DNA of 45,609 nt from a phage: the NCBI GenBank assembly GCA_030873995.1, contig GCA_030873995.1_4701.1, one strand, 5' to 3'. The position numbers and the translations under genes were made by a program. Below, piece after piece: positions 13,003 to 41,645 of the stretch; positions within the stretch are counted from its first letter, which is position 1; every line of letters begins with the position of its first letter. A model generated the notes under the pieces. The model was given only the letters and a program-made list of their open reading frames with translations, had not been told where the DNA came from and searched no databases.

Positions 13003-13048
13003 TATACTCAAGGTTTGTCTCACATGTGAGACATGCCTTTATGAATGA
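13003..13048 (+). promoter_or_regulatory. RNase III-type processing site candidate
   Basis: GTTATACTCAAGG - extended hairpin around palindrome 13019..13034 - CCTTTATGAAT; same flanks recur at 39984..40021. Confidence 0.45.
13019..13034 (+). repeat. 16-bp perfect palindrome GTCTCACATGTGAGAC (copy 1)
   Basis: Read directly; flanks extend the stem. Confidence 0.9.
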
Positions 13049-13066
13049 CATTAATTAGGAGGTAAC

Positions 13067-16000
13067 ATGGTTGATAGTATTAACCAAAATTGGGTGGCGG
13101 TGACTCAACGCAAGTTACCGCCTACCTTCTCTCAAGTTGCTGAAGCAGAGCGTAAGGCCGAAGCACAGAGAGCTAATGACAAAGTATTCCAAACAGCCAT
13201 AGAGAGTGAGTGGGCTTTGTATGGTGGACAACGTGCCTATGAACGCCACACTACAGAGTTTGCTGAACAAGAAGGTTATGAAGTACCTGAATCAACTAAG
13301 GATGAACTATCCAAGTTGTATGGGTATGAAATAGCGCAAGACATAGTCAAGAATGTGAAGTCTCCAGAAGAGTTGCAATTCCGTATGTCTAATGCTGCTG
13401 CGGATAAAGACAGAGCAGACATCTTAGCACGTAATGGTTTCACAGGTTTCAGCGCACAGATTGCTGCTGGTATTCTTGACCCTGTAGGTTGGGCGGCTTC
13501 TCTAGTAGCTGCACCTGTAGCTGGTGCTGTCAAAGTAGGTCGTCTAGGTAGGATTATCAAGACGGCTGCCTTATCTGGTGCTGAAAATGCTGCATTAGAA
13601 GCTGTGCTTGCACAAGGTGATTACCAGCGAGGTGTCGATGATGTACTGGCTGCTGCCGGGTTTGGTATGATTATGGGCGGTACTATTGGCGCTGCAACTA
13701 GGGAACGCATAGCCAGTGCTGGTTCTCGTACAGCGGCAGAGAGAGCAGAGGCTGTATTTGATGACTTGGACACCGTAGTAAAAGGTGCTGATGAGTTTGA
13801 CTCGTCTGCTGCTCGTGCTGTACGTGAGGCCATGGAGTATGACGCGTATATGGCAGCACGTAATTATGAACCACTTCGTGCAAGAGAGGTGGATGCAGAT
13901 ATGGCAATTCTATCTCACACAGACAACTTGAAAGCCAATGCGTCGGTAAGGATGAGTGCTAGTGAGAAAGGACTACTGAAGAAACAGATACGCCAACTGG
14001 AAGCAGAAGCAGCCACACTTAAGGGGAAGAAGATAGATGCTGTAGCAGAGGCTGCCGCCGCTAAGGGTGCACCTAAATCTGCTGCGGACAGATTGGATTT
14101 AGATGTTCAGAAGAAAGCACTGGCACGTAGATTCGATGAACCACTTGCTGATTTACAAGCGCGTCTTGATGAGTTGAATGCCAAGTTATCTCGTGCGAAC
14201 AATGTAGGTAAGGCTAAGGAGGAGCTTAAGAGATTCTCATCGCTGTCCCGTGAAGATCAAATAAAGGAACTAGGTTTAGACGCACCAATGCGTAAGGTGG
14301 AGATGACCCGTGCTGTACGAGATGCAGTAGCTGCAATCCGTGCCGAACGTAAGAAGACACCTACCGAGATACATGCTGAACAAGCTGCAGAAGAGGTAAT
14401 CAAGCAAAAGGCAGATGACTCTATTGGTGCTAAACGTGTTGAAGGTTCAGAGATTGCAGGCGAGCAGTTTGACTTATCTAAAAACATGGAAGAACTTATG
14501 GATGACTTGGCACGAGAAGCATATCAGTCAGAGGTGCGGCCTATTAATCTTAAGGGTCTAGGTTCAGTGTCTTCTGTGATTCTTAACTCAGAGAATCCTG
14601 TGTTCCGAGGTCTAGGTCTTCGTCTGCTTGAAAACGCTCAAGGTGGTGCATACCAAGGTAAGACAGCTTCTATCTTATCAGATGTGTATGGCAACCTTAT
14701 TCGTCATGCAGAACGTAACAGGTACAATGATGGTTTCTCTCAATTCATCAAAGATAACAACCTACGTGCGGTAGATTATCTTAACCCTGCAACGACACGG
14801 GATTTCAATAATCAGATTTATACAGCAATTGTTCGTGGCATACCAGAAGATACACCTCGTGGTGTTAAACTGGCAGCAGAAGGTATCGCTGATAAACTCA
14901 AGAAAGCACTTGAGATTCGTAAGCAAGCAGGAGAGCATGGATTCGAAGATATACAATCTGCTAAGGATTACATCCCTGTTATCTATGACGGTATCAAGGT
15001 TACTGAGGCAGTTAACAAATTGGGGAGTAGTGAGGCTGTTATTCACTTACTATCCAAAGGTTACCAGACAGGTAAGTACAAACTTGGCAAGAAAGCTGCG
15101 GATGCCCTAGCAAAAGTACAGTACATTCGTGCATCGGACTCCACCCTCTCTAGTCGTGTTGCATTCGATAGGGTGGTATCCCAGCAGCAGCAGGCTCAAT
15201 TGATTGAGGATCTGAAGAAAGCAGGGGTACCAGACCATATCATTGATAATTTCATTGAAGGTACTGAATTAGCAGAAATGGCTGAATCGGTATCCAATCG
15301 AGCTAAAGCTAGTATGGGTATTAATACGCAAGCCGAATATGGCGGTTTGAAGGTGCAGGATTTGCTTAATACAAACGTAGGGGAGCTAGCGGAGAACTAC
15401 GGCAAAGAGGCAGCGGGTGGTGCTGCATTGGCTGCTATGGGTTTCCCTACTCGCCAATCTGTGCTGAACGCAATAGATGCCGCAGAACGCGCAGGCCGCA
15501 ATATGGCGGGGTCAAATGCTAAGGCAATCAAACAGCTTAGGTCTGAGGCAGAAATGCTCAGAGATGCCGTTAAGTTAATTTACGGCAACACTATCGACGC
15601 CGACCCTAACTCTGGAATTGTCAGGGGTACTCGACGTGTCCGTGAGATTACAGGGTTGTTACGATTAGGCCAAATGGGCTTCGCTCAGATACCTGAACTG
15701 GCACGTGCAATCTCTAAGATGGGACTAGGGACTGTGCTGAAGTCTGTACCTGCCACTAAGTTCTTACGTTCGAGAGCGGCTCGTAAAGGTGGCACTGCTC
15801 AGGGTGAGTTGCTTGAACCTGAACTGCGAGAAATGGAGGAACTCTTAGGTTATATCGGGGAGGATAACTGGCTCACAGGGTGGAATGTCCGTCATGATGA
15901 GTTCGGAGAAACTGCGGATAACCTAGGTAAGCTGTCTGCTATTATTGATAACGGATTAGCTATGGGTAGTAGAATCAACACAATACTATCTGGTTTTAAA

Positions 16001-16870
16001 GCAGTACAAGGTGGCTCAGAGAAGATTATAGCTCGCTCTATCAATAAGCGACTAAAGCAACATTTGATGGGGGAGCGACAGTTACCCAAAGCAGATCTTG
16101 AAGAAGTTGGCCTAAGTGAAGATGTCATGAAGAGACTTAAGCGTCACTTTGATGATAACCCAATGTACGCTGATTACAAAGGTGAAAAAGTTCGTATGAT
16201 GAACTTTGATGCTATGGAGCCAGACCTGAGAGAGACAGTGGGTGTTGCTGTGCGAAGAATGTCAGGACGTCTTATTCAGCGTAACTTCATAGGAGATGAA
16301 GGTATCTGGATGAATAAATGGTGGGGCAAGGCATTGACCCAGTTTAAGTCATTCTCTATTGTCTCTATTGAGAAACAGCTAATCCATGATTTACGAGGAG
16401 ATAAGATTCAGGCTGCACAGATCCTTGCATGGTCTACCTTACTAGGCTATGCATCTTATGCACTACAGATGCAGATGCAAGCAATTGGTAGGGAGGACAG
16501 AGACAAGTTCTTGAGGGATAAGTTCGAGACACAGAATATCGCTATGGGTGTCTTTAATAAACTCCCACAAGTTGCAGGCTTCGGTCTTGCTGGTGATGCT
16601 TTGGCAACATTTGGCCTAATGCCAGACTCTATGATGCAAGCGCCTGGACGTATGGGGTTCCGTCAGCAAGGGTTTGGTGATTTGGTAGCAGGTGCTGGTG
16701 TAATCAGTGATACAGTTAATTTGTCACAAGCACTAGTTAAGTACGCCAACGGAGATGATGATGTCTCTACTCGGCAGTTGGTGGACAAGGTTCGTCGCCT
16801 TGTTCCTTTGGCAAATACTATTGGTGTAGGTCAGATGACTAAAGCCAGTGTAGACTTATTGGAGGATTGA
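13067..16870 (+). CDS. internal virion (core/ejection) protein, gp16-like
   Basis: 1267 aa, position and size as T7 gp16; AGGAGG RBS. Confidence 0.7.
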   Translation: MVDSINQNWVAVTQRKLPPTFSQVAEAERKAEAQRANDKVFQTAIESEWALYGGQRAYERHTTEFAEQEGYEVPESTKDELSKLYGYEIAQDIVKNVKSPEELQFRMSNAAADKDRADILARNGFTGFSAQIAAGILDPVGWAASLVAAPVAGAVKVGRLGRIIKTAALSGAENAALEAVLAQGDYQRGVDDVLAAAGFGMIMGGTIGAATRERIASAGSRTAAERAEAVFDDLDTVVKGADEFDSSAARAVREAMEYDAYMAARNYEPLRAREVDADMAILSHTDNLKANASVRMSASEKGLLKKQIRQLEAEAATLKGKKIDAVAEAAAAKGAPKSAADRLDLDVQKKALARRFDEPLADLQARLDELNAKLSRANNVGKAKEELKRFSSLSREDQIKELGLDAPMRKVEMTRAVRDAVAAIRAERKKTPTEIHAEQAAEEVIKQKADDSIGAKRVEGSEIAGEQFDLSKNMEELMDDLAREAYQSEVRPINLKGLGSVSSVILNSENPVFRGLGLRLLENAQGGAYQGKTASILSDVYGNLIRHAERNRYNDGFSQFIKDNNLRAVDYLNPATTRDFNNQIYTAIVRGIPEDTPRGVKLAAEGIADKLKKALEIRKQAGEHGFEDIQSAKDYIPVIYDGIKVTEAVNKLGSSEAVIHLLSKGYQTGKYKLGKKAADALAKVQYIRASDSTLSSRVAFDRVVSQQQQAQLIEDLKKAGVPDHIIDNFIEGTELAEMAESVSNRAKASMGINTQAEYGGLKVQDLLNTNVGELAENYGKEAAGGAALAAMGFPTRQSVLNAIDAAERAGRNMAGSNAKAIKQLRSEAEMLRDAVKLIYGNTIDADPNSGIVRGTRRVREITGLLRLGQMGFAQIPELARAISKMGLGTVLKSVPATKFLRSRAARKGGTAQGELLEPELREMEELLGYIGEDNWLTGWNVRHDEFGETADNLGKLSAIIDNGLAMGSRINTILSGFKAVQGGSEKIIARSINKRLKQHLMGERQLPKADLEEVGLSEDVMKRLKRHFDDNPMYADYKGEKVRMMNFDAMEPDLRETVGVAVRRMSGRLIQRNFIGDEGIWMNKWWGKALTQFKSFSIVSIEKQLIHDLRGDKIQAAQILAWSTLLGYASYALQMQMQAIGREDRDKFLRDKFETQNIAMGVFNKLPQVAGFGLAGDALATFGLMPDSMMQAPGRMGFRQQGFGDLVAGAGVISDTVNLSQALVKYANGDDDVSTRQLVDKVRRLVPLANTIGVGQMTKASVDLLED

Positions 16871-17829
16871 TGAGTTACACATTCACTGAACATACAGCGA
16901 ATGGCACTCAAACTACTTTCCCCTTCCGGTTCGCTGGGAGAGACAAGGGGTACTTGAGGGCTTCTGATATTTTAGTTGAAGTAAGAAATGATGGCGTGTG
17001 GAACACGGTAAGTGGTTGGACACTTACAGGTACTAACCAGATAACCTTTAATGTACCGCCAGCGGCAAATACAAAACTTCGTATCAGGCGCGTTGTAGAG
17101 AAAGAAGAACCTTACGCCGAGTTTGACCGTGGTGTAACCTTGGATATGAAATCTCTCAATAACTCCTTTATACATCTTTTGGAAGTATCTCAGGAGCTAC
17201 TGGATGGTTTCTATCCAGATGGTTACTTTGTAAAGCAAGATGTATCTTGGGGTGGACATAAGATTACTGATTTGGCTGATGGCACAAATCCGGGAGATGC
17301 AGTAAATAAAGGACAGCTTGATTCCATCGACAAGAAGCATACAGATTGGAACGCCAAACAGGACATTGAGATTGCTGGTCTTAAAGCTGGTATGACTTCT
17401 GGTATTGCGCACAGAACTGTTCCTTGGTACACGATAGCCCAAGGTGGTGAGATTTCCGTAAAGCCCCCTTATGAATTTCAAGATGCACTAGTTTTCCTTA
17501 ATGGGGTATTGCAGCACCAAATTGTAGGCGCATACTCTATAAGCAACAACACTATCACTTTCGCAGAGCCGCTTGTGGCTGGTACAGAGGTGTATGTGTT
17601 GGTAGGTAGTCGTGTTGCTACATCTGAACCTAATATTCAGTTAGAGTTGAATTTTGACTTAGTAGAAGGCCAACAAGTAGTAAAGATTGGCTCTGCATTT
17701 AAGTATATTGAGGTTTATCTTGATGGACTATTACAACCTAAACTTACTTATCGGGTAGATGGTGACACTGTTACTTTCTCAGAGGGAGTGCCAGAATGCC
17801 GGATGACTGCTAAGATTATCACAGAATAA
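16870..17829 (+). CDS. tail fiber adaptor (gp17 N-terminal-domain-like)
   Basis: 320 aa resembling only the N-terminal tail-attachment domain of T7 gp17; no receptor-binding part. Confidence 0.7.
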   Translation: MSYTFTEHTANGTQTTFPFRFAGRDKGYLRASDILVEVRNDGVWNTVSGWTLTGTNQITFNVPPAANTKLRIRRVVEKEEPYAEFDRGVTLDMKSLNNSFIHLLEVSQELLDGFYPDGYFVKQDVSWGGHKITDLADGTNPGDAVNKGQLDSIDKKHTDWNAKQDIEIAGLKAGMTSGIAHRTVPWYTIAQGGEISVKPPYEFQDALVFLNGVLQHQIVGAYSISNNTITFAEPLVAGTEVYVLVGSRVATSEPNIQLELNFDLVEGQQVVKIGSAFKYIEVYLDGLLQPKLTYRVDGDTVTFSEGVPECRMTAKIITE

Positions 17830-21392: not shown

Positions 21393-21394
21393 TA

Positions 21395-24314: not shown

Positions 24315-24398
24315 GCAACAGGCAGTGCGTAAGCACTGCTTTCACGCAACTTTTCTTAAAGGTTATCATGGTGGTAGCCTTTCAGAAAAGGAGGTTAC

Positions 24399-26582
24399 AT
24401 GCTTCAAAGATTAGGGGCAATGTTTGTTCGGTACAAAAATAAAGTAGGTAATGCTATCGAGCGTACACTACAAAGTAAATTACAGGATGTAGTAAGTGTA
24501 AAGGATTATGGCGCTATTGGTGATGGAGTATATCGTTCACTTGGTGCTAAATTTACCACGTTAAGTATGGCACAAGTAGTATACCCGCATGCGGAAAGTT
24601 TAACTCAATCGCAAGATTGGGCGGCTATTCAGGCTGCACTTAATTCTCACTCAAAAGTGTACATTCCAGCAGGTAAGTACATGCTATCTGATACCATTGA
24701 GATGCGCGGCGGTCAAACTCTGCAAGGTGACGGTATTGATTCTTGGGTTGCAGGTTATGCTGGGTTTGTAAAAGATAATCAAGGCACTCACCTCATAATG
24801 GTGGGAGATGGAAATAAGAAGTATACATTAGATCATGTATCTAACTTCGATGTAGAAGGTGGTGTCATAGACAACCCAGCGAAGAGTGATGCTTATACTG
24901 CCACTGCACCTTCCCCTAATTACTCATTTACTAACTTCACTAACGCTAACGCCTCTGGTGCACAACGTGCTACATTGAAACCTTTCAGCGTAGCATTACG
25001 TTGCACAGGTCACGGTGGTGTTTATCTTCGTGACTTCCGTATTGTGCCTAATCACAGAGGGCAAGAAGGTTATAAGGATGAGTTGTCAACTGCATTAGGG
25101 GACGCATGGGATGTAGGTATTTGGCTGGAGAATACATCTGACTCAGTGTTATCTTCTGTGCAAGCAGTTGGTTACTGGCGTATTGCAGGTGTTATGAAGA
25201 CTTGTATTCCACAAGAGGGTTCCTTTGTTGGTGGAGAGCGTGATAGGATATACAATTGCACATTACAAGGTTATCGTGGTTTCTTAGCACGTTCGCATGA
25301 TACTTACCAAGTAGAAGAAGTATCAGGTAACACTGTATCGATTAAGTGGTCTGCATCTCACACTTTCGAACCTTCTGGTAAAGTTCGTATCCAAGGGAAA
25401 GACCGTAGTTATACTAGCCTGTCTGTATCTGGTGACAAATTAGTCTTCAATGGTATTGACGATGTATCAGGTATTAATACCAATAGCTATGTGAGAGTTT
25501 CAGGGTCTTCATTCGGAATGTCTGCTACTCAACTAAATAACACATACATCGCTGCATTAAACCATCATGCTCGCTTGCCAGCAACCTCTAATCTTTTAGA
25601 TAATAGGTTTTCTACTTCGGCAGCTTGCTATGAAGTTGCAGGTGAACCAATTCGTGCCATAAAATTATCTAACTGTACTGTCATTACTTGGGATGACATC
25701 TTAGGTATGACTGGTGGTATTCGGGATTTCCAGACGACAGATACTTACTTCGAGTCTCAGCCTTTCCGTACTTCTGTGCAAGGCTTGGCAAGCACCACAC
25801 AACCTGCTGGTTCTCGCATGATTGCACTTCGTGGACGTCAAGGTTCTAAAACTACAGGATATCAAGCTATCGGTTGTACTTATGGGCCAGGTGTAGACTT
25901 AAGTCCTCGTTATGAAAGCGATGTATCTCGTTACACAACTTCAGGTGGTATGTTCAATCCAAGAGAAGATTTGAACACAACTAAGCAGTTACCAATGAGG
26001 CAAGACGCTACTGAGCTATCTTCTACTTCTGACTTATTCCTTACACATGCTGTAGGGCGGAAGGCCTATGTTGGCGCTACCTCTGGTGATGCAACGCTTC
26101 AATCTAGAACTGGATCATTGAATATCCAATCAGGACTTCGTGTACGGATTGGTGGCACTGATGGTAGTGGTTGGTATATTGCTGACAGTGCTAAGTTGAC
26201 ACCTACTGCTGACAATGCAAGGGCTTGTGGACAGCCTAATGGACGATGGACTGTTGTCTATGCTGTTAATGGTACAATCCAGACTTCTGATGGTAGATTC
26301 AAGGAAATCCTTGAGATTGAACAGGCAGAACTTGATGCTGGTCTTGAATTATCAGCAAACCTAATTAAGTATCGGTGGAATGGGGAAGATAAAATTCACT
26401 TTGGTTGCATAGCACAAGAAGTGATGTTAATACTGGAGAAACATGGCCTAGACCCATTACAATATGATATGGTTCAGTATGATGAGGAGGCAGACATCTT
26501 TGGGGTAAACTATGCTGAACTCAACAGCTTCTGTATTGCAGCATTATCGAGGAAGTTAAATGCCATTAATAAAATCAGTTAA
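24399..26582 (+). CDS. tailspike 2 with C-terminal intramolecular chaperone (peptidase S74-like) domain
   Basis: 727 aa; VKDYGAIGDG signature; C-terminal SDGRFKE...HFGCIAQE; AAGGAGG RBS. Confidence 0.75.
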   Translation: MLQRLGAMFVRYKNKVGNAIERTLQSKLQDVVSVKDYGAIGDGVYRSLGAKFTTLSMAQVVYPHAESLTQSQDWAAIQAALNSHSKVYIPAGKYMLSDTIEMRGGQTLQGDGIDSWVAGYAGFVKDNQGTHLIMVGDGNKKYTLDHVSNFDVEGGVIDNPAKSDAYTATAPSPNYSFTNFTNANASGAQRATLKPFSVALRCTGHGGVYLRDFRIVPNHRGQEGYKDELSTALGDAWDVGIWLENTSDSVLSSVQAVGYWRIAGVMKTCIPQEGSFVGGERDRIYNCTLQGYRGFLARSHDTYQVEEVSGNTVSIKWSASHTFEPSGKVRIQGKDRSYTSLSVSGDKLVFNGIDDVSGINTNSYVRVSGSSFGMSATQLNNTYIAALNHHARLPATSNLLDNRFSTSAACYEVAGEPIRAIKLSNCTVITWDDILGMTGGIRDFQTTDTYFESQPFRTSVQGLASTTQPAGSRMIALRGRQGSKTTGYQAIGCTYGPGVDLSPRYESDVSRYTTSGGMFNPREDLNTTKQLPMRQDATELSSTSDLFLTHAVGRKAYVGATSGDATLQSRTGSLNIQSGLRVRIGGTDGSGWYIADSAKLTPTADNARACGQPNGRWTVVYAVNGTIQTSDGRFKEILEIEQAELDAGLELSANLIKYRWNGEDKIHFGCIAQEVMLILEKHGLDPLQYDMVQYDEEADIFGVNYAELNSFCIAALSRKLNAINKIS

Positions 26583-26999: not shown

Positions 27000-27686
27000 C
27001 CAAAGGTGGTCACAAAGTAACCAAAGTCAAAATTTTGATGTAGGCGTGTGTGAGGTGTCTCGCCCTCGCCCTCGCCGGGTTGTCCCCATAGGGTGGCCTG
27101 AGGGAATCCGTCTTCGACGGGCAGGGCTGATGTACTCCTTGCCTAGTACAAGGGAGGCGGAGTGAACGCCTGGGACGGCCTAGGGAATGGCTTAGTGGTG
27201 GACAAGGTGATTACCTTAGTGAAGCCTCTTAGTGCATTCCTTAGGCCATTCAGGGCGTTTATGAGGTATTGACAGGGTGGATGGGTGTGGGCTATCTGTT
27301 CGTTTCGCTACGCTTCACTCACTGCTCCTCACTTCGTTCGTCGCTGCGGTAGCCTGATGTGTACCTTAGGTTATTACTTGATGGATAGCTTAGGTTAGCC
27401 TTAGTGGATTACCTTAGTTAAAGCCTTAGTGCTTCACTTAGTATCAGCTTAGTAGTGTACCTTAGTCAGACTTAGTGTCTTCTCTTAGTGATTGCATAGC
27501 TAAAGCTATAAGATGCAAATAGGTCGCGGTCGGTAGACCGCTAAAGAAAGAGAATGGTAATAAGATGCAGTAGGAGGAACACCAGAAACCTAGCCAACCT
27601 AAGCTATCCTAGCTCTATATCTATTGCTTTTCCTTAGTCTAACACGTTAGACAACCTATCTTATTCTTAGTGATGGTAACTTAGTG

Positions 27687-28557: not shown

Positions 28558-28653
28558 TTAGATGGTAGCTTCTTAGTCTGGATAGGTTAAACCTAGGGTA
28601 TTCTTTTGAGTACCCTATAATGTAACCTAACTAACTAAATGAGGATTAATAAC

Positions 28654-29204: not shown

Positions 29205-29432
29205 ATGGATTTAGATAGCATCATTATGGCATTTGCTCTTATTGGCTTAAGCTGGTGCTCCTATCACCTTTACCGTGAGTTCTTATTTGATAAAGCTAAA
29301 CGCAAACTAAGAAAGGAAGGCGGTAATTACCTTTGTGTAAGAGGTGGGCTTGTAGAATACATTGCACCTAACGGCACGGAATGCGCCATTAGCAAAGATG
29401 CATTTATAGAAACGTGGCATTACATCAAGTAA
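29205..29432 (+). CDS. early small membrane protein (75 aa)
   Basis: AGGAG RBS; N-terminal TM helix IIMAFALIGLSWCSY. Confidence 0.55.
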   Translation: MDLDSIIMAFALIGLSWCSYHLYREFLFDKAKRKLRKEGGNYLCVRGGLVEYIAPNGTECAISKDAFIETWHYIK

Positions 29433-29495
29433 CTAGCCTATAGCCTACCTGAGTGGGCTATGTGATATTTACTTACACTATATAAGGTGACTATT

Positions 29496-30419
29496 ATGAC
29501 TACTGAAAACACCCTCCTGTCTGTTCGTGAAGCTGCAACCGCTGAAATCAAGCAGCACTTAGACAATATCGGCACTTCTTACATCAAAGTTGGCGCTTGT
29601 CTGAATGAATTACGCGGTGATTTCGAAGGTCAAAAAGACTTTTTAGCTTATGTAGAATCAGAGTTTGGCATCAAGAAAGCACAATGCTACAAGCTGATGA
29701 GTGTAGCCCGTGTCTTTGAAGGAGACGAACGCTTTAAAGGTGTGGCTATGCGTGTAATGCTGGCGCTTGTTCCTTTCGCTGATGAAAATATAATCATGGA
29801 GAAGGCCGCAGAACTCGCCGCAGCTGGCAAGCTGGACACTAATGCCGTAAATGCCCTGATTGATCCTAAGAAAGAGACAAAGGCCGAGACGGTACAATCT
29901 AAGGCTGAGACAGTAAAACCGCAGGAGAACGCGACTGAGGCCGCAGAAACTATGCAAGGACATGCAACCTTTGAGGATTTCATCTTAGAGAAGGCGAAGG
30001 AGGAGTTACAAAGTGTGCCGCCAGTAAGTGAGTCGGGTAACGACGAATCCGCACCGTGGGAAGATGAAAGCAAGCCGGAAGGCACAAAGGCAGCACCGCT
30101 GGATAACACGGTTAATACCGAAAACGCCGCTATTGCTGGTCTGCTGGCACAAATTAAAGCACTGACCGAGCAATTACAGGCAGCTAATGACCGCATTGCC
30201 TCCTTAAGCAGCGCACGCGAAAGCAAGAAAGCAGCCGCGCCTATGCTGCCGCAATTCAAATCTTCCTGCTTCTATGCTCGCTTAGGTTTAAGCGCTGAGG
30301 AGGCAACGAAGAAAACAGCAGTTAACAAGGCACGCCGCGAACTGGTTAAGCTAGGCTACGGCGAAGGCCATGAAGCATGGCCCTTAATCTCTGAGGCAGT
30401 AGAAGAATTAACTAAGTAA
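29496..30419 (+). CDS. early protein of unknown function (307 aa) immediately upstream of the RNAP gene
   Basis: AAGGTG RBS; Ala/Glu-rich low-complexity middle; occupies the T7 gene 0.7 position but has no kinase motifs. Confidence 0.6.
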   Translation: MTTENTLLSVREAATAEIKQHLDNIGTSYIKVGACLNELRGDFEGQKDFLAYVESEFGIKKAQCYKLMSVARVFEGDERFKGVAMRVMLALVPFADENIIMEKAAELAAAGKLDTNAVNALIDPKKETKAETVQSKAETVKPQENATEAAETMQGHATFEDFILEKAKEELQSVPPVSESGNDESAPWEDESKPEGTKAAPLDNTVNTENAAIAGLLAQIKALTEQLQAANDRIASLSSARESKKAAAPMLPQFKSSCFYARLGLSAEEATKKTAVNKARRELVKLGYGEGHEAWPLISEAVEELTK

Positions 30420-30482
30420 CCTTATCGGTGGCATCTTCTTAGGTGTCACCTATTAAGGTTTCTTTCACTAGGAGTAAACAAG

Positions 30483-33110
30483 ATGCAAGACCTACACGCT
30501 ATTCAACTTCAACTTGAAGAAGAAATGTTTAACGGAGGTATCCGTCGCTTTGAAGCGGACCAACAACGCCAGATTGCATCCGGTAATGAATCCGACACGG
30601 CATGGAATCGCCGCTTATTGTCTGAGTTAATCGCGCCAATGGCTGAAGGCATTCAGGCATACAAGGAAGAGTATGAAGGTAAAAGAGGCCGTGCACCGCG
30701 TGCATTAGCTTTCATTAACTGCGTAGAAAACGAAGTGGCAGCATATATCACGATGAAAATCGTTATGGATATGCTGAACACGGATGTAACCTTGCAGGCT
30801 ATAGCCATGAATGTAGCTGACCGCATTGAGGACCAAGTACGTTTTAGCAAGCTGGAAGGTCACGCCGCCAAATACTTTGAGAAAGTTAAGAAGTCACTTA
30901 AGGCAAGTAAGACTAAATCATATCGCCATGCGCACAACGTAGCGGTCGTGGCTGAGAAGTCAGTAGCTGACCGTGACGCTGATTTCTCTCGCTGGGAGGC
31001 GTGGCCTAAAGATACCTTGCTACAAATCGGTATGACCTTGCTAGAAATACTGGAAAATAGTGTATTCTTCAATGGTCAGCCTGTCTTTCTTCGCACCTTG
31101 CGCACTAATGGTGGCAAGCATGGCGTTTACTACTTACAGACTAGCGAACACGTGGGTGAATGGATAACTGCATTTAAAGAGCACGTAGCTCAGCTGAGTC
31201 CAGCCTATGCGCCTTGCGTTATTCCTCCTCGTCCGTGGGTTTCTCCGTTTAATGGTGGCTTCCATACCGAGAAAGTGGCGAGTCGTATTCGTCTGGTTAA
31301 AGGAAACCGCGAGCACGTCCGCAAGCTGACCAAAAAGCAAATGCCAGCGGTTTACAAGGCTGTTAACGCTTTGCAGGCGACTAAGTGGCAGGTTAATAAA
31401 GAGGTTTTGCAGGTAGTAGAGGACGTTATCCGTCTCGACCTTGGTTATGGTGTGCCTTCCTTTAAACCGCTCATCGACCGTGAGAACAAGCCAGCTAATC
31501 CAGTGCCGTTAGAGTTCCAGCACCTGCGAGGCCGTGAACTTAAAGAGATGCTAACGCCGGAACAATGGCAAGCCTTCATCAACTGGAAAGGCGAATGTAC
31601 CAAGCTGTATACCGCTGAAACTAAGCGCGGCAGCAAGTCGGCGGCAACCGTTCGTATGGTCGGGCAGGCCCGTAAATACAGCCAGTTTGACGCAATATAC
31701 TTCGTGTATGCACTGGATAGCCGTTCACGCGTTTATGCGCAATCTAGCACGCTCTCGCCGCAATCAAACGACTTAGGCAAGGCATTGCTCCGTTTTACCG
31801 AAGGGCAGCGTCTTGATAGCGCTGAGGCGCTTAAGTGGTTTTTGGTGAACGGGGCGAATAACTGGGGTTGGGATAAGAAAACTTTTGACGTGCGCACCTC
31901 TAACGTGCTGGATGGCGAATTTCAAGACATGTGCCGCGACATTGCAGCCGATCCGCTGACCTTCACTCAATGGGTAAATGCTGATTCCCCTTACGGCTTC
32001 CTTGCATGGTGCTTTGAATATGCGCGTTATCTGGATGCACTGGATGAAGGCACGCAAGACCAATTCATGACGCACCTACCCGTCCATCAAGACGGTAGTT
32101 GCTCTGGTATCCAGCACTATAGCGCGATGTTACGCGATGAAGTAGGTGCGAAAGCAGTAAACCTTAAGCCTTCTGACTTCCCTCAAGATATTTATGGCGC
32201 GGTTGCGCAGGTTGTTATCCAGAAGAATTACGCCTACATGAATGCAGACGATGCAGAGACTTTCACATCTGGAAGCGTCACACTTACAGGTGCAGAACTG
32301 CGTAGCATGGCTAGTGCGTGGGATATGATAGGAATAACTCGCGGATTGACCAAAAAGCCCGTAATGACACTACCTTATGGCAGCACACGTCTAACCTGCC
32401 GTGAATCAGTGATTGATTATATCGTTGATTTGGAAGAAAAAGAGGCCCAACGAGCTATTGCGGAAGGGCGTACCGCCAATCCTGTACACCCTTTTGATAA
32501 TGACCGTAAGGACAGCCTGACACCTAGCGCAGCTTATAACTATATGACAGCTTTAATCTGGCCTTCTATTTCGGAAGTGGTTAAAGCTCCTATAGTGGCA
32601 ATGAAAATGATTCGTCAGCTTGCCCGTTTCGCAGCTAAAAGGAATGAAGGCTTAGAGTATACCTTGCCTACTGGCTTCATCTTGCAACAAAAGATTATGG
32701 CTACTGATATGCTCCGCGTATCCACTTGCCTGATGGGAGAAATCAAGATGAGTCTACAGATTGAAACGGACGTAGTGGATGAAACGGCTATGATGGGCGC
32801 TGCTGCTCCTAACTTTGTGCATGGTCATGATGCCAGTCACCTTATCTTAACAGTCTGCGACCTTGTTGATAAAGGGATTACATCTATCGCAGTCATTCAT
32901 GATTCTTTCGGTACTCACGCAGGCCGTACAGCCGATCTTCGTGATAGCTTAAGGGCAGAAATGGTGAAGATGTATCAAGGCCGTAATGCCCTGCAAAGCC
33001 TGTTAGATGAGCATGAAGAACGCTGGTTAGTAGACACCGGAATCCAAGTGCCAGAGCAAGGAGAGTTTGACCTTAACGAAATCTTAGTATCTGACTATTG
33101 CTTCGCATAA
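30483..33110 (+). CDS. single-subunit DNA-dependent RNA polymerase (T7/SP6 type)
   Basis: 875 aa; [17 protein letters not shown] and HDSFGT catalytic motifs; C-terminus ends CFA. Confidence 0.95.
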
Positions 33111-33118
33111 TATTAATA

Positions 33119-33149
33119 GGCCATTCCTTCGGGAGTGGCCTTTTCTTTT
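33119..33149 (+). terminator. intrinsic terminator after the RNAP gene (early terminator analog)
   Basis: 9-bp stem GGCCATTCC/GGAGTGGCC with UUCG tetraloop, then TTTTCTTTT. Confidence 0.8.
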
Positions 33150-33183
33150 ACCTACTACCGGTAACATTTCATTAACATAAAGT

Positions 33184-33199
33184 GTCTCACATGTGAGAC
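33184..33199 (+). repeat. 16-bp perfect palindrome (copy 2), abuts promoter 33202
   Basis: Read directly. Confidence 0.9.
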
Positions 33200-33201
33200 T
33201 T

Positions 33202-33224
33202 ATTTACCGGACACTATAGGATAG
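33202..33224 (+). promoter_or_regulatory. phage-RNAP promoter (origin-flanking, upstream copy)
   Basis: ATTTACCGGACACTATAGGATAG; C at -11; palindrome 33184..33199 abuts it. Confidence 0.75.
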
Positions 33225-33364
33225 CCGTCGGAGACGGGAAAGAAAGGGAAGATAAAGGATATAAAGGAAGTAATAGGTATTAAAGGTTATATAGGTTATC
33301 TAGGAATACCTATTACCTTCTTCTTTCCTCTTATTACCACTTAGAGGAAGGGCAGATCTAGGTT
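33225..33364 (+). other. candidate primary origin of replication: AT/purine-rich repeat region between twin phage promoters
   Basis: GAAAGAAAGGGAAGATAAAGGATATAAAGGAAG and AGGTTATATAGGTTA repeats with a long imperfect inverted repeat; same arrangement as the T7 primary origin. Confidence 0.45.
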
Positions 33365-33380
33365 GTCTCACATGTGAGAC
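33365..33380 (+). repeat. 16-bp perfect palindrome (copy 3), abuts promoter 33386
   Basis: Read directly. Confidence 0.9.
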
Positions 33381-33385
33381 TTCGT

Positions 33386-33408
33386 ATTTACCGGACAGTA
33401 TAGATAAG
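33386..33408 (+). promoter_or_regulatory. phage-RNAP promoter (origin-flanking, downstream copy)
   Basis: ATTTACCGGACAGTATAGATAAG; G at -5; palindrome 33365..33380 abuts it. Confidence 0.6.
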
Positions 33409-33433
33409 ACTAACTTACTTTGGAGATTTAACC

Positions 33434-33562
33434 ATGCGTAACTTTGAGAAGATGACCCGTAAAGCTAACCGTTTTGACATGGAAGAAGGGCAGAAGAAAG
33501 GCAAGAAGCTGAATAAACCTGTCCGTGACCGTGCATCTAAACGCGCTGCGTGGGAGTTCTAA
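33434..33562 (+). CDS. T7 gp1.1-like small basic protein
   Basis: 42 aa MRNFEKMTRKANR... matches the T7 gp1.1 N-terminus as recalled; same position after RNAP and twin promoters. Confidence 0.6.
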   Translation: MRNFEKMTRKANRFDMEEGQKKGKKLNKPVRDRASKRAAWEF

Positions 33563-33565
33563 GTT

Positions 33566-35554
33566 ATGGCTATTATTCAGAATGTACCGTGTCCTGCTTG
33601 CCAAAAGAACGGACATGATATTACTGGCAATCATTTAATGATCTTTGACGACGGGGCAGGGTACTGTAACCGTGGTCACTTCCATGATAACGGTAAACCT
33701 TATTACCACAAGCCGGAAGGTGGCATCGAGATAACCGAGTTACCTATTACTGGCAATATCAAATATACACCTTCTCAATTCAAAGAAATGGAGAAGGAAG
33801 GGAAGATAAGCGACCCTAAGCTACGCGCCATCGCACTTGGTGGTATGCGTATGAAAGACCGTTGGGAGGTTATGAATGAGCAAGAAAGGGCAGACCAAGA
33901 AGCAGAGTGGAAACTTGATGTTGAATGGTTCCTCACGCTTAAGCGTAAGAACCTTGTATCCCGTCACATTCGAGGTGACATCGCAGCAATGTACGATGTG
34001 CGCGTTGGACACGATGAAGAGGGAAGAGTCAACCGTCACTATTATCCACGATATGAAAAGGGTGTGTTTGTTGGAGCAAAATGCCGGACGTTGCCGAAGG
34101 ATTTTAAGTTCGGACACCTAGGTAAACTCTTTGGTATGCAAGACCTTTTCGGTATGAACACTTTGTCTCACGTGTTAGACAAGGGGAGACGAAAGGATTG
34201 CTTGCTTATTGTAGGCGGTGAACTTGATGCACTAGCAGCGCAGCAGATGCTCCTTGATTCTGCCAAAGGTACTAAGTGGGAAGGTCAGCCATACCATGTA
34301 TGGTCTGTCAATAAAGGTGAGTCTTGCCTTGAAGAGATAGTGCAAAACCGTGAGCACATAGCCCAATTCAAGAAGATTATATGGGGCTTTGATGGCGACG
34401 AGGTGGGGCAGAAGCAGAACCAACAAGCTGCTCGCCTGTTTCCTGGCAAATCCTACATCCTCGAATATCCATCTGGTTGCAAAGATGCTAACAAGGCATT
34501 GATGGCTGGCAAGGCTAAAGAGTTTGTAGATGCATGGTTTAATGCCAAGTCATCTGATGAAGTCTTTGGTAGCCAGATTAAATCTATCGCATCTCAAAGG
34601 GATAAGCTCAAGGCTGCACGTCCAGAGCAAGGACTATCATGGCCTTGGCCTAAGCTGAACAAGGTAACGCTAGGTATTCGTAAGAACCAACTTATCATTG
34701 TAGGCGCAGGCTCTGGTGTAGGTAAGACTGAGTTCCTTCGTGAAGTAGTTAAGCACCTCATTGAAGAACACGGTGAATCTGTAGGCATCATTTCTACAGA
34801 AGACCCGATGGTCAAGGTGTCCCGTGCTTTTATCGGCAAGTGGATTGATAAGCGTATTGAGTTACCGCCAACCAACGACCCGAAAGAAGATGGATACCGT
34901 GAGGTGTTCGACTACACCGAGGAAGAGGCTAACGCCGCCATTGATTATGTAGCTGATACAGGTAAGCTGTTTGTAGCTGACCTAGAGGGTGACTATTCGA
35001 TGGAAAAGGTAGAGCAAACTTGCCTAGAGTTTGAGGCTATGGGCATTTCTAATATCATCATTGATAACTTAACGGGGATTAAATTAGATGAGCGTGCTTT
35101 TGGTGGGAAGGTTGGTGCACTTGATGAATGCGTCAAGCGGATTGGTACTATCAAAGACCGACACCCGGTTACTATATTCCTTGTATCACACCTTACACGT
35201 CCTCCGGCAAACCGTACCCAACACGAAGAAGGTGGCGAGGTTATCCTTTCTGACTTCCGAGGTTCAGGCGCTATCGGATTCTGGGCATCTTACGCCTTGG
35301 GGATTGAGCGTAATACAAGAGCTGAAACGCTTGATGAACGGACTACCACGTACATCTCATGTGTCAAAGACCGCGACCAAGGTATCTACACTGGAACCAA
35401 GGTCATGCTTAAGGGTGACATTCAAACCGGACGTTTAATGGAACCACAAGCCCGTACTAAGTCATTTGATACAGGTGAAGCAAGGCAACAAGAAGTGCCG
35501 GATTTACCGGACACTATAGAAGAGACAACTTTTGACGATGAACAGGAGTTTTAA
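33566..35554 (+). CDS. DNA primase/helicase (gp4-like)
   Basis: 662 aa; N-terminal Cys4 zinc ribbon, Walker A GAGSGVGKT; acidic C-terminus ending DDEQEF. Confidence 0.9.
   Translation: MAIIQNVPCPACQKNGHDITGNHLMIFDDGAGYCNRGHFHDNGKPYYHKPEGGIEITELPITGNIKYTPSQFKEMEKEGKISDPKLRAIALGGMRMKDRWEVMNEQERADQEAEWKLDVEWFLTLKRKNLVSRHIRGDIAAMYDVRVGHDEEGRVNRHYYPRYEKGVFVGAKCRTLPKDFKFGHLGKLFGMQDLFGMNTLSHVLDKGRRKDCLLIVGGELDALAAQQMLLDSAKGTKWEGQPYHVWSVNKGESCLEEIVQNREHIAQFKKIIWGFDGDEVGQKQNQQAARLFPGKSYILEYPSGCKDANKALMAGKAKEFVDAWFNAKSSDEVFGSQIKSIASQRDKLKAARPEQGLSWPWPKLNKVTLGIRKNQLIIVGAGSGVGKTEFLREVVKHLIEEHGESVGIISTEDPMVKVSRAFIGKWIDKRIELPPTNDPKEDGYREVFDYTEEEANAAIDYVADTGKLFVADLEGDYSMEKVEQTCLEFEAMGISNIIIDNLTGIKLDERAFGGKVGALDECVKRIGTIKDRHPVTIFLVSHLTRPPANRTQHEEGGEVILSDFRGSGAIGFWASYALGIERNTRAETLDERTTTYISCVKDRDQGIYTGTKVMLKGDIQTGRLMEPQARTKSFDTGEARQQEVPDLPDTIEETTFDDEQEF
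35502..35524 (+). promoter_or_regulatory. phage-RNAP promoter embedded in the primase/helicase C-terminal coding tail
   Basis: ATTTACCGGACACTATAGAAGAG, encodes DLPDTIEE. Confidence 0.75.
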
Positions 35555-35715
35555 TGGAAATTATTAAACCAGTATTGAATATCGGTATTGAGATCCTATT
35601 CATGCTTGTGATCGCAGATTATGCTGCACGATATGGCTTCAAGAAAGCAGTGAAACTTATCGTTGCATCTGGTTTTATGATGTCAATGTTCTTTATTGTA
35701 ACACGCCTTATCTAG
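35554..35715 (+). CDS. small membrane protein (53 aa)
   Basis: TAATG coupling to the primase/helicase stop; two hydrophobic segments. Confidence 0.45.
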   Translation: MEIIKPVLNIGIEILFMLVIADYAARYGFKKAVKLIVASGFMMSMFFIVTRLI

Positions 35716-35732
35716 TGTATTTATCAGGGCTT

Positions 35733-35748
35733 GTCTCACATGTGAGAC
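35733..35748 (+). repeat. 16-bp perfect palindrome (copy 4), extended stem
   Basis: Read directly. Confidence 0.9.
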
Positions 35749-35787
35749 AGGCTCTTATTAAGTACATTAAATAACTGGAGATTGATT

Positions 35788-36700: not shown

Positions 36701-36866
36701 ACATAGTCTTAGAATGTTCGATGGTCATGAAGACCTGCAAGCCAAGATTACTAACCAAGCCTTCCTGTTCGCACAGTTAACTATGGCTGAGGCCAAGAAG
36801 AATAGTCTCACTCGTGAACAGGTTATCAAGGAAAGTGAAGTGAAACGTAAGATTCGCAGTCGATAA
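36690..36866 (+). CDS. small ORF (58 aa)
   Basis: Overlaps the upstream stop; followed by an extended hairpin; below track threshold. Confidence 0.3.
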   Translation: MQNKHSLRMFDGHEDLQAKITNQAFLFAQLTMAEAKKNSLTREQVIKESEVKRKIRSR

Positions 36867-36876
36867 GTCAAGGGTT

Positions 36877-36892
36877 GTCTCACGTGTGAGAC
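36877..36892 (+). repeat. 16-bp near-palindrome GTCTCACGTGTGAGAC (copy 5), extended stem
   Basis: Read directly. Confidence 0.9.
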
Positions 36893-36923
36893 AGCCTTTT
36901 ATCATGTTGATTGGAGGTGCATT

Positions 36924-39769: not shown

Positions 39770-39885
39770 TGGATAGGCTTGACATTGTTTACCTATTCTT
39801 CACTTTCTTTCTTACACTCCTTATGCTTGCTTGTTATGGGAGTATGAGACTAGATATACCTGATGAAGAAGAGGGTTACGACTAA
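39769..39885 (+). CDS. tiny membrane peptide (38 aa), paralog 1
   Basis: ATG overlaps the DNAP stop (TGATG); hydrophobic core then acidic DIPDEEEGYD tail. Confidence 0.4.
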   Translation: MDRLDIVYLFFTFFLTLLMLACYGSMRLDIPDEEEGYD

Positions 39886-39983
39886 TGCAAACTGCTTTTA
39901 TTATTCTTGGTATCATATTATTTATGGTAGTATTCTGGGCTTTCTCTGGCATTGACCCAGATTGTGATGGTAACTACGACTGA
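39885..39983 (+). CDS. tiny membrane peptide (32 aa), paralog 2
   Basis: TAATG coupling; hydrophobic core then GIDPDCDGNYD tail similar to 39769..39885. Confidence 0.4.
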   Translation: MQTAFIILGIILFMVVFWAFSGIDPDCDGNYD

Positions 39984-40021
39984 GTTATACTCAAGGTCAC
40001 TTACGAGTGGCCTTTATGAAT
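39984..40021 (+). promoter_or_regulatory. RNase III-type processing site candidate
   Basis: GTTATACTCAAGG - hairpin GGTCACT-TACG-AGTGGCC - CCTTTATGAAT. Confidence 0.45.
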
Positions 40022-40051
40022 AACTTACTCCCACACATTTTGTCTAACATG

Positions 40052-40074
40052 ATTTACTGGACACTATAGAAGGA
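40052..40074 (+). promoter_or_regulatory. phage-RNAP promoter
   Basis: ATTTACTGGACACTATAGAAGGA exact consensus; +1 G at 40069. Confidence 0.85.
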
Positions 40075-40138
40075 AAGCCTAGGTAATCTAGGTTTATAAG
40101 GTAGTATGGGTAATTAAGTAAATATAGGAGATATAAAT

Positions 40139-40516
40139 ATGTCAATGGTAACTACTCTGGTATTCGTAGCTCAATACTTTCGTGGTTTGGCTAACAAGTT
40201 CAAAGCTAAGGCTATCAAAGCTATTGAGTCTCGCATTGAAGCAGTACATGCAGAGCAGTTTGAAGTTGAAGAACATCGTAGTTCTCAAATGATTGACTGC
40301 CACAATCGCTACTATGCATCTCGTGATGACCTTAATGCACGCCAAGTCAAAGAGGTTGAAGAGATGCTGGCACGTCACCAGCAAGAGCGAGACAGCCTGA
40401 AAGCTGAATTTGAAGAGAACAAGGCATCCATCGCCCTTGTACATCAAGCCGCATCTGACAGCCTGAAGAAAGAGATTGTTATGCTGGAAATTGAGTTAGA
40501 CAACCTGACCAAATAA
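40139..40516 (+). CDS. hypothetical coiled-coil protein (125 aa)
   Basis: Own promoter at 40052 and AT-rich leader with GGAG RBS. Confidence 0.55.
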   Translation: MSMVTTLVFVAQYFRGLANKFKAKAIKAIESRIEAVHAEQFEVEEHRSSQMIDCHNRYYASRDDLNARQVKEVEEMLARHQQERDSLKAEFEENKASIALVHQAASDSLKKEIVMLEIELDNLTK

Positions 40517-40537
40517 TTACTGGACACTATAGAACAA
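40515..40537 (+). promoter_or_regulatory. phage-RNAP promoter
   Basis: AATTACTGGACACTATAGAACAA; +1 G at 40532. Confidence 0.8.
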
Positions 40538-40593
40538 TAGGTCGACTTAGTTCGGCCTATGATTGTGTAGTGTAACAATAGGAGACTAAATAA

Positions 40594-41400
40594 ATGGCAC
40601 GTGGTGATTTTGATTTTGGTGCTCAGGTTACTAAAGCTGAAGGTAAGGTTTTTAAGAACCCTGAAGTTGGTGATCATGAAGCAGTAATCTCTGGCATCAT
40701 TCATGTGGGTTCCTTCCAAGATATCTTTAAGAAAGGTAATACCACTGAAGTTAAGAAGCCAGCAAACTTTGTTCTTGTTAAGATTGTACTGATGGGTGAC
40801 GATGACAAGAACGAAGATGATTCTCGCATGGAACAATGGATGGCTGTTCCTCTGAAGTCTGGTGATAAGGCAACACTGACTAAGTTCCTGAATGCAGTTG
40901 ACCCCAAAGAATTGCTTGGTGGCTTCGATGATTTTATCGGGGAATGCCTGACTGCAACTATGGTTGGCTCTGGTGACAAGAATGACGATGGTTCATTCAA
41001 GTATGTTAACTGGAAAGGATTCGGTGGTATGCCTGACAAGCTTAAGAAACTTGTCATTGCTCAGGTTGAAGAAGAGGGTCTGTCTATGACAGGTCACATC
41101 ACCTTCGACAAGCTGACCAAAGAAATCCTTGATGACATTCCTGCTAACTTGGTACGCCAATACTTCCTTAATGAAACACCTCGTGGTAAGAACCTGTCTG
41201 TTGCTGGTTCTCACGTAGAAGCAATCATTAAAGCTGCTCGTGAAGAAGACCCAGAGTGGAAGAAGGCTAAGAAGAAAGACGAGGAAGATGCTACCCCAGC
41301 TAATCGTAAATCTCTGGATACTGGTGAGTCTGTTCCGCAGGAAGTACCTGAAGCAGAAGATACTCCTGCACCGGAGATGGATGAGGACGCGGAATACTAA
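40594..41400 (+). CDS. hypothetical protein with acidic C-terminal tail (possible ssDNA-binding protein)
   Basis: 268 aa; own promoter 40515; AGGAG RBS; C-terminus EMDEDAEY resembles gp2.5-type acidic tails. Confidence 0.55.
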   Translation: MARGDFDFGAQVTKAEGKVFKNPEVGDHEAVISGIIHVGSFQDIFKKGNTTEVKKPANFVLVKIVLMGDDDKNEDDSRMEQWMAVPLKSGDKATLTKFLNAVDPKELLGGFDDFIGECLTATMVGSGDKNDDGSFKYVNWKGFGGMPDKLKKLVIAQVEEEGLSMTGHITFDKLTKEILDDIPANLVRQYFLNETPRGKNLSVAGSHVEAIIKAAREEDPEWKKAKKKDEEDATPANRKSLDTGESVPQEVPEAEDTPAPEMDEDAEY

Positions 41401-41409
41401 GGAGGGAGA

Positions 41410-41628
41410 ATGAAAGTACAAATCGTAACCCTGCACTGCAAGAAGGGTATCACAACGCTTGGAGGTGGCACTTTCCACTCTTTCTCCGAAGGGGAGATTT
41501 ATGCTGACCTGCACTACATCTGGCGCGACGGACAGCACGTGGTGAACTACAGCGACCCAGCTACGGGGAAACGCCACGGCGTATCGCTTCCGGCGCATGA
41601 CATTGCTCAGGTGAACACAGTTTTATAA
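41410..41628 (+). CDS. hypothetical protein (72 aa)
   Basis: AAGGAGGGAG RBS. Confidence 0.55.
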   Translation: MKVQIVTLHCKKGITTLGGGTFHSFSEGEIYADLHYIWRDGQHVVNYSDPATGKRHGVSLPAHDIAQVNTVL

Positions 41629-41629
41629 A

Positions 41630-41645
41630 GTCTCACGTGTGAGAC
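41630..41645 (+). repeat. 16-bp near-palindrome GTCTCACGTGTGAGAC (copy 6), 15 bp upstream of promoter 41661
   Basis: Read directly. Confidence 0.9.

Follow-up and report, generated by a model that had tools for sequence, protein, structure and literature searches.

On the IncP plasmid RK2, a single helix-turn-helix (HTH) protein of the ParB family, KorB, acts on about a dozen identical short palindromes, the OB operators, that are spread over a small replicon; some of these operators abut promoters and others are distant. The RNase III sites of phage T7 (R0.3, R0.5, R1, R1.1, R1.3, R4.7, R6.5, and R18.5) are bipartite hairpins of the sense strand with an asymmetric internal loop, CAAGG and CCUUUAU^GA flanks, and a location just upstream of a gene start. 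In the Autographiviridae vibriophage VIB04, highly similar palindromes are reported to be dispersed over a T7-like genome, some of them RNase III-like and some not (Robins et al. 2024; PMC11707656). The element studied here, a family of 16-bp palindromes in a 45,609-nucleotide stretch of phage DNA (GenBank assembly GCA_030873995.1, contig GCA_030873995.1_4701.1; hereafter, the window), invites comparison with all three. The window is a whole K1-5-like Vectrevirus genome (Autographiviridae, Molineuxvirinae) in circularly permuted form, and its genes lie on the + strand throughout; positions 32900–33700 are 99.5% identical to Escherichia phage vB-Eco-KMB14. We conclude that the palindromes are probably operator- or parS-like sites of a dimeric phage protein, gp6, and that in three slots they also form the apex of RNase III-type hairpins.

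The exact pattern GTCTCACRTGTGAGAC, that is, GTCTCAC(A/G)TGTGAGAC, occurs at six sites in the window (13017, 33184, 33365, 35733, 36877, and 41630) and at none in 100 dinucleotide-preserving shuffles. An earlier sequence-only reading had listed the same six copies, with the first placed 2 nt off at 13019, and had called the element a perfect 16-bp palindrome. This description fits the four copies with AT at the center, whereas the two with GT (36877 and 41630) are one transition short of perfect symmetry. All six exact copies fall outside + strand open reading frames (ORFs) of at least 40 amino acids, which make up 92.6% of the window and leave a remainder of 7.4% (P ~1.7e-7). The claim that all copies are noncoding is thus true of the exact copies and not of the family, which has at least eight members in the window rather than six: a relaxed pattern adds diverged copies at 27637 (GTCTAACACGTTAGAC) and 34165 (GTCTCACGTGTTAGAC), the second of which is inside the primase/helicase ORF.

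None of the palindromes is assigned a strand. Perfect copies are found between the gp35-like and gp36-like virion genes (13017–13032; GTCTCACATGTGAGAC), 43 nt past the early terminator hairpin (33184–33199), at 33365–33380, and in the gap behind a short ORF that trails the primase/helicase gene (35733–35748). The copies with a GT center lie 3' of gene 11 (36877–36892; GTCTCACGTGTGAGAC) and 1 nt past the stop codon of gene 17 (41630–41645). The diverged member at 27637–27652 is separated by 578 nt from the physical left end and precedes the -35 element of an early sigma70-like promoter by ~35 nt, and that at 34165–34180 occupies the codons S-H-V-L-D. Twelve SP6-type promoters were located in the window. 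Three copies were said to lie 2 to 15 bp upstream of phage promoters, and the gaps are indeed 2 nt (33184 to phiA, 33202–33224), 5 nt (33365 to phiB, 33386–33408), and 15 nt (41630 to the promoter at 41661–41683, which precedes gene 18), with palindrome centers at -27.5, -30.5, and -40.5 relative to +1. The two copies reported to bracket the putative origin, 33184 and 33365, lie, as stated, on either side of phiA and an AT-rich inverted repeat. This origin-like region (33221–33364, between phiA and phiB) contains a long AT-rich inverted repeat at ~33240–33345 with one purine-rich and one pyrimidine-rich arm, preceded by a small 5' hairpin (CCGUCGGAGACGG; 33226–33238) that is kept from K1-5 and SP6 to Aeromonas phage HJG.

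The family is conserved in related phages, as the same reading had proposed to check. Using the generalized form GTC[TC][CA]AC-NN-GT[GT][AG]GAC and a set of relatives consisting of K1-5, SP6, UAB_Phi78, Lelliottia phD2B, Klebsiella K13PH07C1L, and Erwinia phiEa1H, we found 7–9 copies in each of seven Molineuxvirinae genomes. The copies occupy syntenic slots: the left end, upstream of the two promoters behind the RNA polymerase (RNAP) gene, within the helicase ORF, behind the helicase gene, behind gene 11, behind gene 17 right before the next promoter, and behind gp35; some genomes have an additional slot inside the RNAP ORF. Synteny extends from the Erwinia phages through Aeromonas-type phages, and copies within one genome evolve in concert. 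The arms are GTCTCAC in Vectrevirus and the Erwinia phages and GTCCAAC in phD2B and the Klebsiella phage, and they are a mixture of GTCTAAC and GTCCAAC in SP6. A wider survey of 79 IMG/VR loci retrieved via the helicase revealed, at the same kinds of place, GTCTCAC with a 3-nt center (the Aeromonas type), GTCCAAC with a 3-nt center (L022), and the arm types GTTTCAC, GTCTACA (11 copies), GTACTAG, GTAACAC, and GTTCGAG. T7 (L089) lacks the family and has three palindromes of the 7+7 type, fewer than the ~11 in shuffled sequence; in SP6-like genomes, such palindromes are 2–3x commoner than in shuffled sequence. GenBank records of the six named relatives list no regulatory features, Rfam gave no match at gathering thresholds, and our literature search found no description of RNase III sites or palindromes in SP6-like phages. 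Two other identities were set aside. A specificity element for RNAP was rejected since palindrome type is independent of a lineage's promoter sequence, and REP elements mobilized by a RAYT were rejected since there is no GTAG tag and no RAYT transposase among the proteins scanned, and the slots keep their synteny instead of moving. The 16-mer is also found in Patescibacteria contigs from metagenome-assembled genomes (L105, L125, L138–L140, L143, L151, and L160), with four copies within 700 bp in one of them (L125, 5020–5734).

The evidence that points to a protein partner is co-variation with gp6, the product of an early + strand gene (29487–30419) just upstream of the RNAP gene. A motif in its predicted recognition helix, K-A-Q66-x-Y68-K69-L-M, tracks palindrome type in 42 of 42 loci. 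Q-x-Y-K accompanies GTCTCAC (Vectrevirus, the Erwinia phages, L032, and the Aeromonas type), Q-x-Y/F-N accompanies GTCCAAC (phD2B, the Klebsiella phages, UAB_Phi78, and L020–L028), and Q-x-Y-H accompanies the mixed GTCTAAC/GTCCAAC sites of SP6. The remaining pairings are Q-x-S-K with GTTTCAC (L041 and L047), W-x-Y-R with GTACTAG (L008, L038, and L045), Y-x-Y-R with GTCTACA (L029), and H-x-Y-R with GTAACAC (L036). In a gp6 tree built with the helix columns masked, lineages with Lys do not group together as a clade: Vectrevirus branches from within Asn/His lineages, with the Erwinia (Lys) phages as the outgroup. The GTTTCAC lineages are likewise nested among GTCTCAC lineages with a 3-nt center, which implies several correlated switches. 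The pairing of Lys with a C:G pair and of Asn with an A:T pair would suit the usual recognition chemistry. The motif also predicted sites out of sample. For three distant gp6 homologues (46–48% identity) on short metagenomic contigs, the helix was read first and the contig then inspected, and the prediction was right in all three: P0129 (F-N) has GTCCAACACGTTGGAC on its 2.5-kb contig, P0144 (Y-K) has two GTCTCAC palindromes on its 4.1-kb contig, and P0133 (F-K) has two GTCTCAC palindromes flanking its RNAP gene.

The predicted architecture of gp6 is consistent with such a role. The sequence by itself pointed to an HTH followed by a coiled coil. A first AlphaFold (AF2) model, built from close relatives only, was set aside as too poor (pLDDT 45); with a diverse alignment, the N- and C-domains reached pLDDT 94–97. 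In this model, a KorB/ParB-like HTH N-domain, which resembles the DNA-binding domains of KorB, ParB, and SopB, is followed by a disordered linker, a coiled coil formed by a long helix (amino acids 209–248), and a J-like C-domain; the predicted recognition helix spans approximately amino acids 64–77 and includes Q66, Y68, and K69. Foldseek comparison of the gp6 model with the Protein Data Bank (PDB) gave nothing significant, sequence searches of the PDB with gp6, gp16, and gp18 gave nothing, and Pfam gave nothing useful for the window proteins. Distant gp6 homologues match Pfam DUF3102 and, weakly, DnaJ. Homologues of gp6 occur in every palindrome-bearing lineage whose locus spans the region upstream of the RNAP gene, and T7 has none. 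As alternative binders, the basic, Cys-rich gp10 and gp12 were set aside, being absent from distant palindrome-bearing lineages. The suggestion of a dimeric protein binding site, made from the sequence alone, thus gains from the two-fold symmetry of the core, its co-variation with the HTH-like helix, and a modeled fold of the KorB/ParB type that includes a coiled coil.

Three copies were also said to lie in longer hairpins, which is correct for 13017, 35733, and 36877 (folding energies -22.3, -29.5, and -26.6 kcal/mol). These bipartite + strand hairpins (12995–13058, 35711–35774, and 36855–36918) carry the palindrome at the apex of a 13-bp upper stem, followed by an asymmetric internal loop and a lower stem of 9–11 bp, and they end at the Shine-Dalgarno sequence of the next gene: the second right before that of gene 10 and the third at that of gene 12. 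Antisense folds are weaker (-14.3, -15.9, and -14.1 kcal/mol, in the same order). The flanks of the 13017 copy, ACUCAAGG...CCUUUAUGA in DNA and ACUCAAGG...CCUUUAU^GAAU as a hairpin, correspond to the consensus of T7 RNase III sites. The CAAGG...CCTTTAT motif of T7, of which R1 and R1.3 have a variant, ends exactly at the published cleavage coordinates (890, 1468, 3138, 5887, 6448, 13892, and 36856). A covariance model, R1, built from seven T7 RNase III sites, recovered the held-out T7 site R6.5 with 42.7 bits and the three palindrome hairpins with 38.2 (E 2e-7), 19.6 (E 0.02), and 18.3 bits (E 0.05), respectively. Its eight best hits in the window, the palindrome hairpins among them, all fall between genes on the sense strand, a short way upstream of a gene. 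Because a model trained only on T7 sites recovers them, we class the hairpins at 13017, 35733, and 36877 as T7-type processing signals rather than terminators, with putative cleavage. The other five hits have ordinary apexes and no palindrome (39978–40033 with 48.9 bits, 28579–28636, 29425–29479, 30412–30469, and 24347–24400). The apex at 39978–40033 is T7-like (GGUCACUUACGAGUGGCC), and the RNase III-like hairpins ahead of the ocr-like gene and the RNAP gene parallel T7 R0.3 and R1.

The idea of a shared RNA hairpin is thereby borne out for these three copies, in whose orthologues both hairpin stems have undergone compensatory double changes. The R1 model had no match at 33184, 33365, 41630, 27637, or 34165, which form a 6-bp stem with a 4-nt loop only. 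The fold-energy comparison that the sequence-only reading had called for divides the family in the same way: z is -4.6, -8.9, and -4.4 at 13017, 35733, and 36877, but an unremarkable -0.7 to +0.5 at the free-standing copies, and a value of -2.2 at 41630 stems from a neighboring hairpin. A second hairpin (GGUGUCCGGUAUUUACUGGACAC; 41650–41673) lies directly behind the palindrome at 41630 and overlaps positions -17 to -5 of the promoter preceding gene 18.

Within the hairpins, the 16-bp core behaves as a separable element. It is absent from the other RNase III-type sites of the window; in Erwinia phiEa1H the orthologous RNase III-type site behind gp35 has no palindrome, and in HJG the palindrome stands beside, not inside, a canonical RNase III-type site. 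Watson-Crick pairs account for 96% of the pairing in the 7-bp arms of 184 unique sites and G·U pairs for 1.5%. G·U pairs make up 27% of the seven pairs that flank the core in 47 extended hairpins, versus 1.5% in the core arms of the same hairpins; the flanks behave as RNA and the core does not. The center is invariably R-Y or R-N-Y, which is a strand-symmetric rule. The left-end slot in Vectrevirus reads GTCTAAC/GTTAGAC, GTCTCAC/GTTAGAC, or GTCTAAC/GTGAGAC; there and in ORF copies, both halves remain allowed half-sites even where they have ceased to pair with each other.

The ORF copies provide further evidence. Inside the site, synonymous positions are either frozen or follow its type, whereas neighboring synonymous positions vary freely. 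In the helicase slot, perfection is barred for the K1-5-type copy, in which an in-frame GTGAGAC would give a TGA stop, and in L022, which has 3-nt centers elsewhere, the helicase copy is lost and the amino acids are changed. His/Asn switches track lineage type in both the helicase and RNAP slots. In lineages with 3-nt centers, the RNAP slot is re-coded as V-S-R-C-E-T, and synonymous compensatory changes separate GTCTCAC from GTTTCAC genomes. These substitution patterns indicate that the ORF copies are under selection at the nucleotide level. An intact copy is present in the RNAP ORFs of UAB_Phi78, phD2B, L027, and phiEa1H; in that of the window, a decayed copy (CTCTAACGTGCTGGAT; 31898–31913) keeps the SNVLD motif while its synonymous positions have drifted.

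Several points weigh against gp6 as the reader of these sites. Its binding and dimeric stoichiometry are putative, drawing on co-variation and the modeled fold. The lineages are not fully independent, which means that the permutation significance of the co-variation is overstated. Pfam detects no ParBc domain in gp6, only one long helix precedes the HTH in the model, the J-like domain has no HPD motif, and a PHROGs scan covering 20 window proteins, early and middle, revealed none that is ParA-like. Because it has no CTPase domain and no evident ParA partner, gp6 should not be filed as a canonical ParB, though it may work like KorB or ParB. None of the 16-mers was found in the literature, in a search that did not include the original SP6 and K1-5 genome papers, so that an earlier mention is possible. 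Finally, 2-nt and 3-nt centers coexist in single genomes (L022, L029, L041, and L047), which is unusual for a rigid dimer and which the long disordered linker before the coiled coil of gp6 could accommodate; GTACTAG lineages have a 4-nt T-Y-R-G center on the sense strand (10 copies listed with sequence); and a T·G asymmetry in SP6 has the same direction at all transcribed sites. For the T-Y-R-G center and the SP6 asymmetry, recognition as RNA or as a single strand is the better explanation.

These features keep alive the main rival, according to which the palindrome is purely an RNA element: a lineage-specific stem-loop in the transcript that RNase III or another RNA-binding factor uses for processing, 3'-end protection, or pausing. 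Such an element could account for the three copies at the apexes of RNase III-type hairpins, for loops that vary between 2, 3, and 4 nt, for the sense-strand-specific T-Y-R-G loop of GTACTAG lineages, and for a U·G wobble that is oriented alike at all transcribed SP6 sites. Moreover, copies 33184 and 33365 pair into a 16-bp duplex in the predicted minimum-energy fold of 33150–33420, which would suit RNase III, and since each copy is self-complementary, it can also pair with every other copy. This duplex encloses phiA and the origin-like hairpin; a long-range pairing of the flanks of these copies (CCGGUAA with UUACCGG) was discarded, as it is not conserved in K1-5 or SP6 when judged by eye. Nonetheless, we regard an RNA-only element as unlikely. 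Free-standing copies form just the short stem with a z near zero, other RNase III-type sites do without the core, which in HJG adjoins such a site, and the left-end copy is upstream of the early promoters. Nor would an RNA stem-loop account for conserved hybrid copies with mismatched arms, and it leaves unexplained why a residue in the gp6 helix predicts the arm sequence.

A role as hairpins in single-stranded DNA, acting in replication, for instance in priming or in helicase loading on the lagging-strand template, or as structures that host systems sense, is very unlikely in our judgment. Copies do cluster around the origin-like region, and palindromes of T7 RNase III sites and similar ones of the vibriophage are reported to act as single-stranded DNA hairpin signals for the Lamassu DdmABC defense (PMC11707656). 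In SP6 and UAB_Phi78, the left-end copy has an asymmetry opposite to that of copies right of the origin; however, the left-end copies of phD2B, L020, L021, L027, and GTACTAG lineages show no such flip, which makes the change of orientation inconsistent. SP6 primase recognizes GCA, a sequence that is not in the core, and the mismatched-arm copies oppose this explanation as they do one based on RNA.

Still less probable is that the copies serve as plain intrinsic terminators or attenuators whose stem is shared by chance. A terminator scan marks 33184 and 33365 as weakly terminator-like, and U-rich sequence follows the extended hairpins. The T-rich tracts noted earlier are, however, not terminator tails: instead of an uninterrupted U-run behind a GC-rich stem, they read UUAUGAAU, UUAUUAAG, and UUUUAUCA, and they fit the 3' side, of CCUUUAUGA type, found in T7-type RNase III sites. 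The true terminator hairpins stand apart from the palindromes (33118–33141 and 42164–42191 in the scan), in agreement with the statement that the palindromes are not only generic terminators, and terminators would need no identical 16-mer, are not found in ORFs, and show no co-variation with a protein helix. It is as improbable that a transcription factor or nucleoid protein of the host binds the palindrome, or that the palindrome is a functionless selfish repeat homogenized by gene conversion: although the copies of any one genome change together, the matches listed from a scan of 185,000 species genomes were scattered over unrelated taxa and showed no enterobacterial enrichment, phages of different hosts share a type that follows gp6 rather than host, and the slots are syntenic from Erwinia to Aeromonas-type phages.

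In the favored model, in which gp6 reads the palindromes, each 16-mer would consist of two half-sites (GTC-Y-M-AC-R) bound by a gp6 dimer. The KorB/ParB-type HTH would contact DNA, the coiled coil would serve as the dimerization segment, and the J-like domain would lie C-terminal; each SP6-like lineage has its own version of the site and a matching recognition helix. The sites are placed upstream of three phage promoters (centers -27 to -40) and early host-type promoters, at gene boundaries near the origin, and in conserved ORF slots, a layout reminiscent of the RK2 KorB operators and of origin-proximal parS sites. With every gene transcribed from the same strand, each intergenic copy forms an RNA stem-loop as well, and in slots 13017, 35733, and 36877 this is extended into a full T7-type RNase III processing hairpin. 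By analogy, the promoter-, early-promoter-, and origin-proximal positions suggest KorB-like control of transcription, read-through, or replication. It is tempting to speculate that binding modulates adjacent promoters, read-through, and the origin in the switch from early to middle expression.

A more ambitious version, which we consider doubtful, is that gp6 and the palindromes make up a chromosome-organizing or initiator system that marks the origin-proximal third of the phage genome. The J-like domain might recruit or remodel complexes there (for example, DnaK, polymerases, or primase/helicase), much as a J domain is combined with an origin-binding domain in polyomavirus large T antigen. 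Such a system would replace T7 functions of gp0.7, gp2, and lysozyme, and its sites could double as RNA processing signals, coupling punctuation at the DNA and RNA levels.

SP6, K1-5, and K1E are classic model phages and therapeutic candidates, and the group is the source of SP6 RNA polymerase. The gene 6 family is annotated as PHROG 4571 with no function assigned, and to our knowledge no sequence-specific DNA-binding regulator is known for SP6-like phages. If gp6 reads the palindromes, site and protein would be a cis/trans pair in a lytic phage of the T7 supergroup, with a simple recognition code that matches K69 to C at half-site position 5 and Asn to A. The pair would account for the nucleotide-level constraint within the RNA polymerase and helicase genes, and the lineages would offer at least eight natural orthogonal protein-operator types of possible use in synthetic biology. 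Hairpins that are likely to be read as terminators would be relabeled as RNase III-type processing sites. Dispersed Autographiviridae palindromes, which host Lamassu systems can sense, would include predicted protein-binding sites that the phage cannot easily lose.

Other features of the window were noted along the way. Both ends of the K1-5 genome map to 27060–27294; the window was thus opened elsewhere, with the ~235-bp terminal repeat collapsed to one copy. A half palindrome with its center (GTCTAACATG; 40042–40051) abuts the promoter at 40052, 8 nt past a canonical RNase III-type hairpin, and is present in K1-5 and not in SP6. The products gp16 (40594–41400) and gp18 (41734–42105) both end in an acidic stretch closed by an aromatic residue (..DEDAEY and ..EEEEF), a feature of T7 gp2.5 as well, and gp16 is probably a single-strand DNA-binding protein. 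An HNH endonuclease ORF (43429–43872) lies between the exonuclease and endonuclease VII genes.

Set against the described systems, the palindromes of VIB04, the one related case that our literature search turned up, differ in that they are reported as triggers of Lamassu DdmABC, with no cognate phage protein or lineage-specific code proposed for them (PMC11707656). The window hairpins share the T7 features given above, but their upper stem is 13 bp rather than 9–11 bp, their cleavage is predicted, and they carry an invariant 16-nt core that also stands alone elsewhere. The stoperators of cluster A mycobacteriophages, bound by the L5 gp71 repressor, are likewise many copies of one short protein-binding site distributed genome-wide, typically at gene boundaries, and may act on elongating polymerase; they are, however, asymmetric, oriented, and served by a lysogenic repressor, whereas the sites described here are palindromic and belong to a strictly lytic phage. 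Unlike KorB, gp6 lacks the ParB/Srx CTPase N-domain and a KorA or IncC (ParA) partner and has instead a coiled coil and a J-like domain. Its replicon is a lytic phage of the T7 supergroup with its own RNA polymerase rather than a plasmid, and its 16–17-bp site is unrelated in sequence to the OB operator. The absence of a CTPase domain and of ParA also separates gp6 from ParB (Spo0J), as does a lytic phage without obvious need for segregation. The likeness to parS lies in the sites themselves: several 16-bp palindromes near the origin, some within ORFs. The parS half-site is GTTTCAC, the same as the arms of L041 and L047 and one base from GTCTCAC, although the phage half-sites are parted by 2–3 extra central bases.

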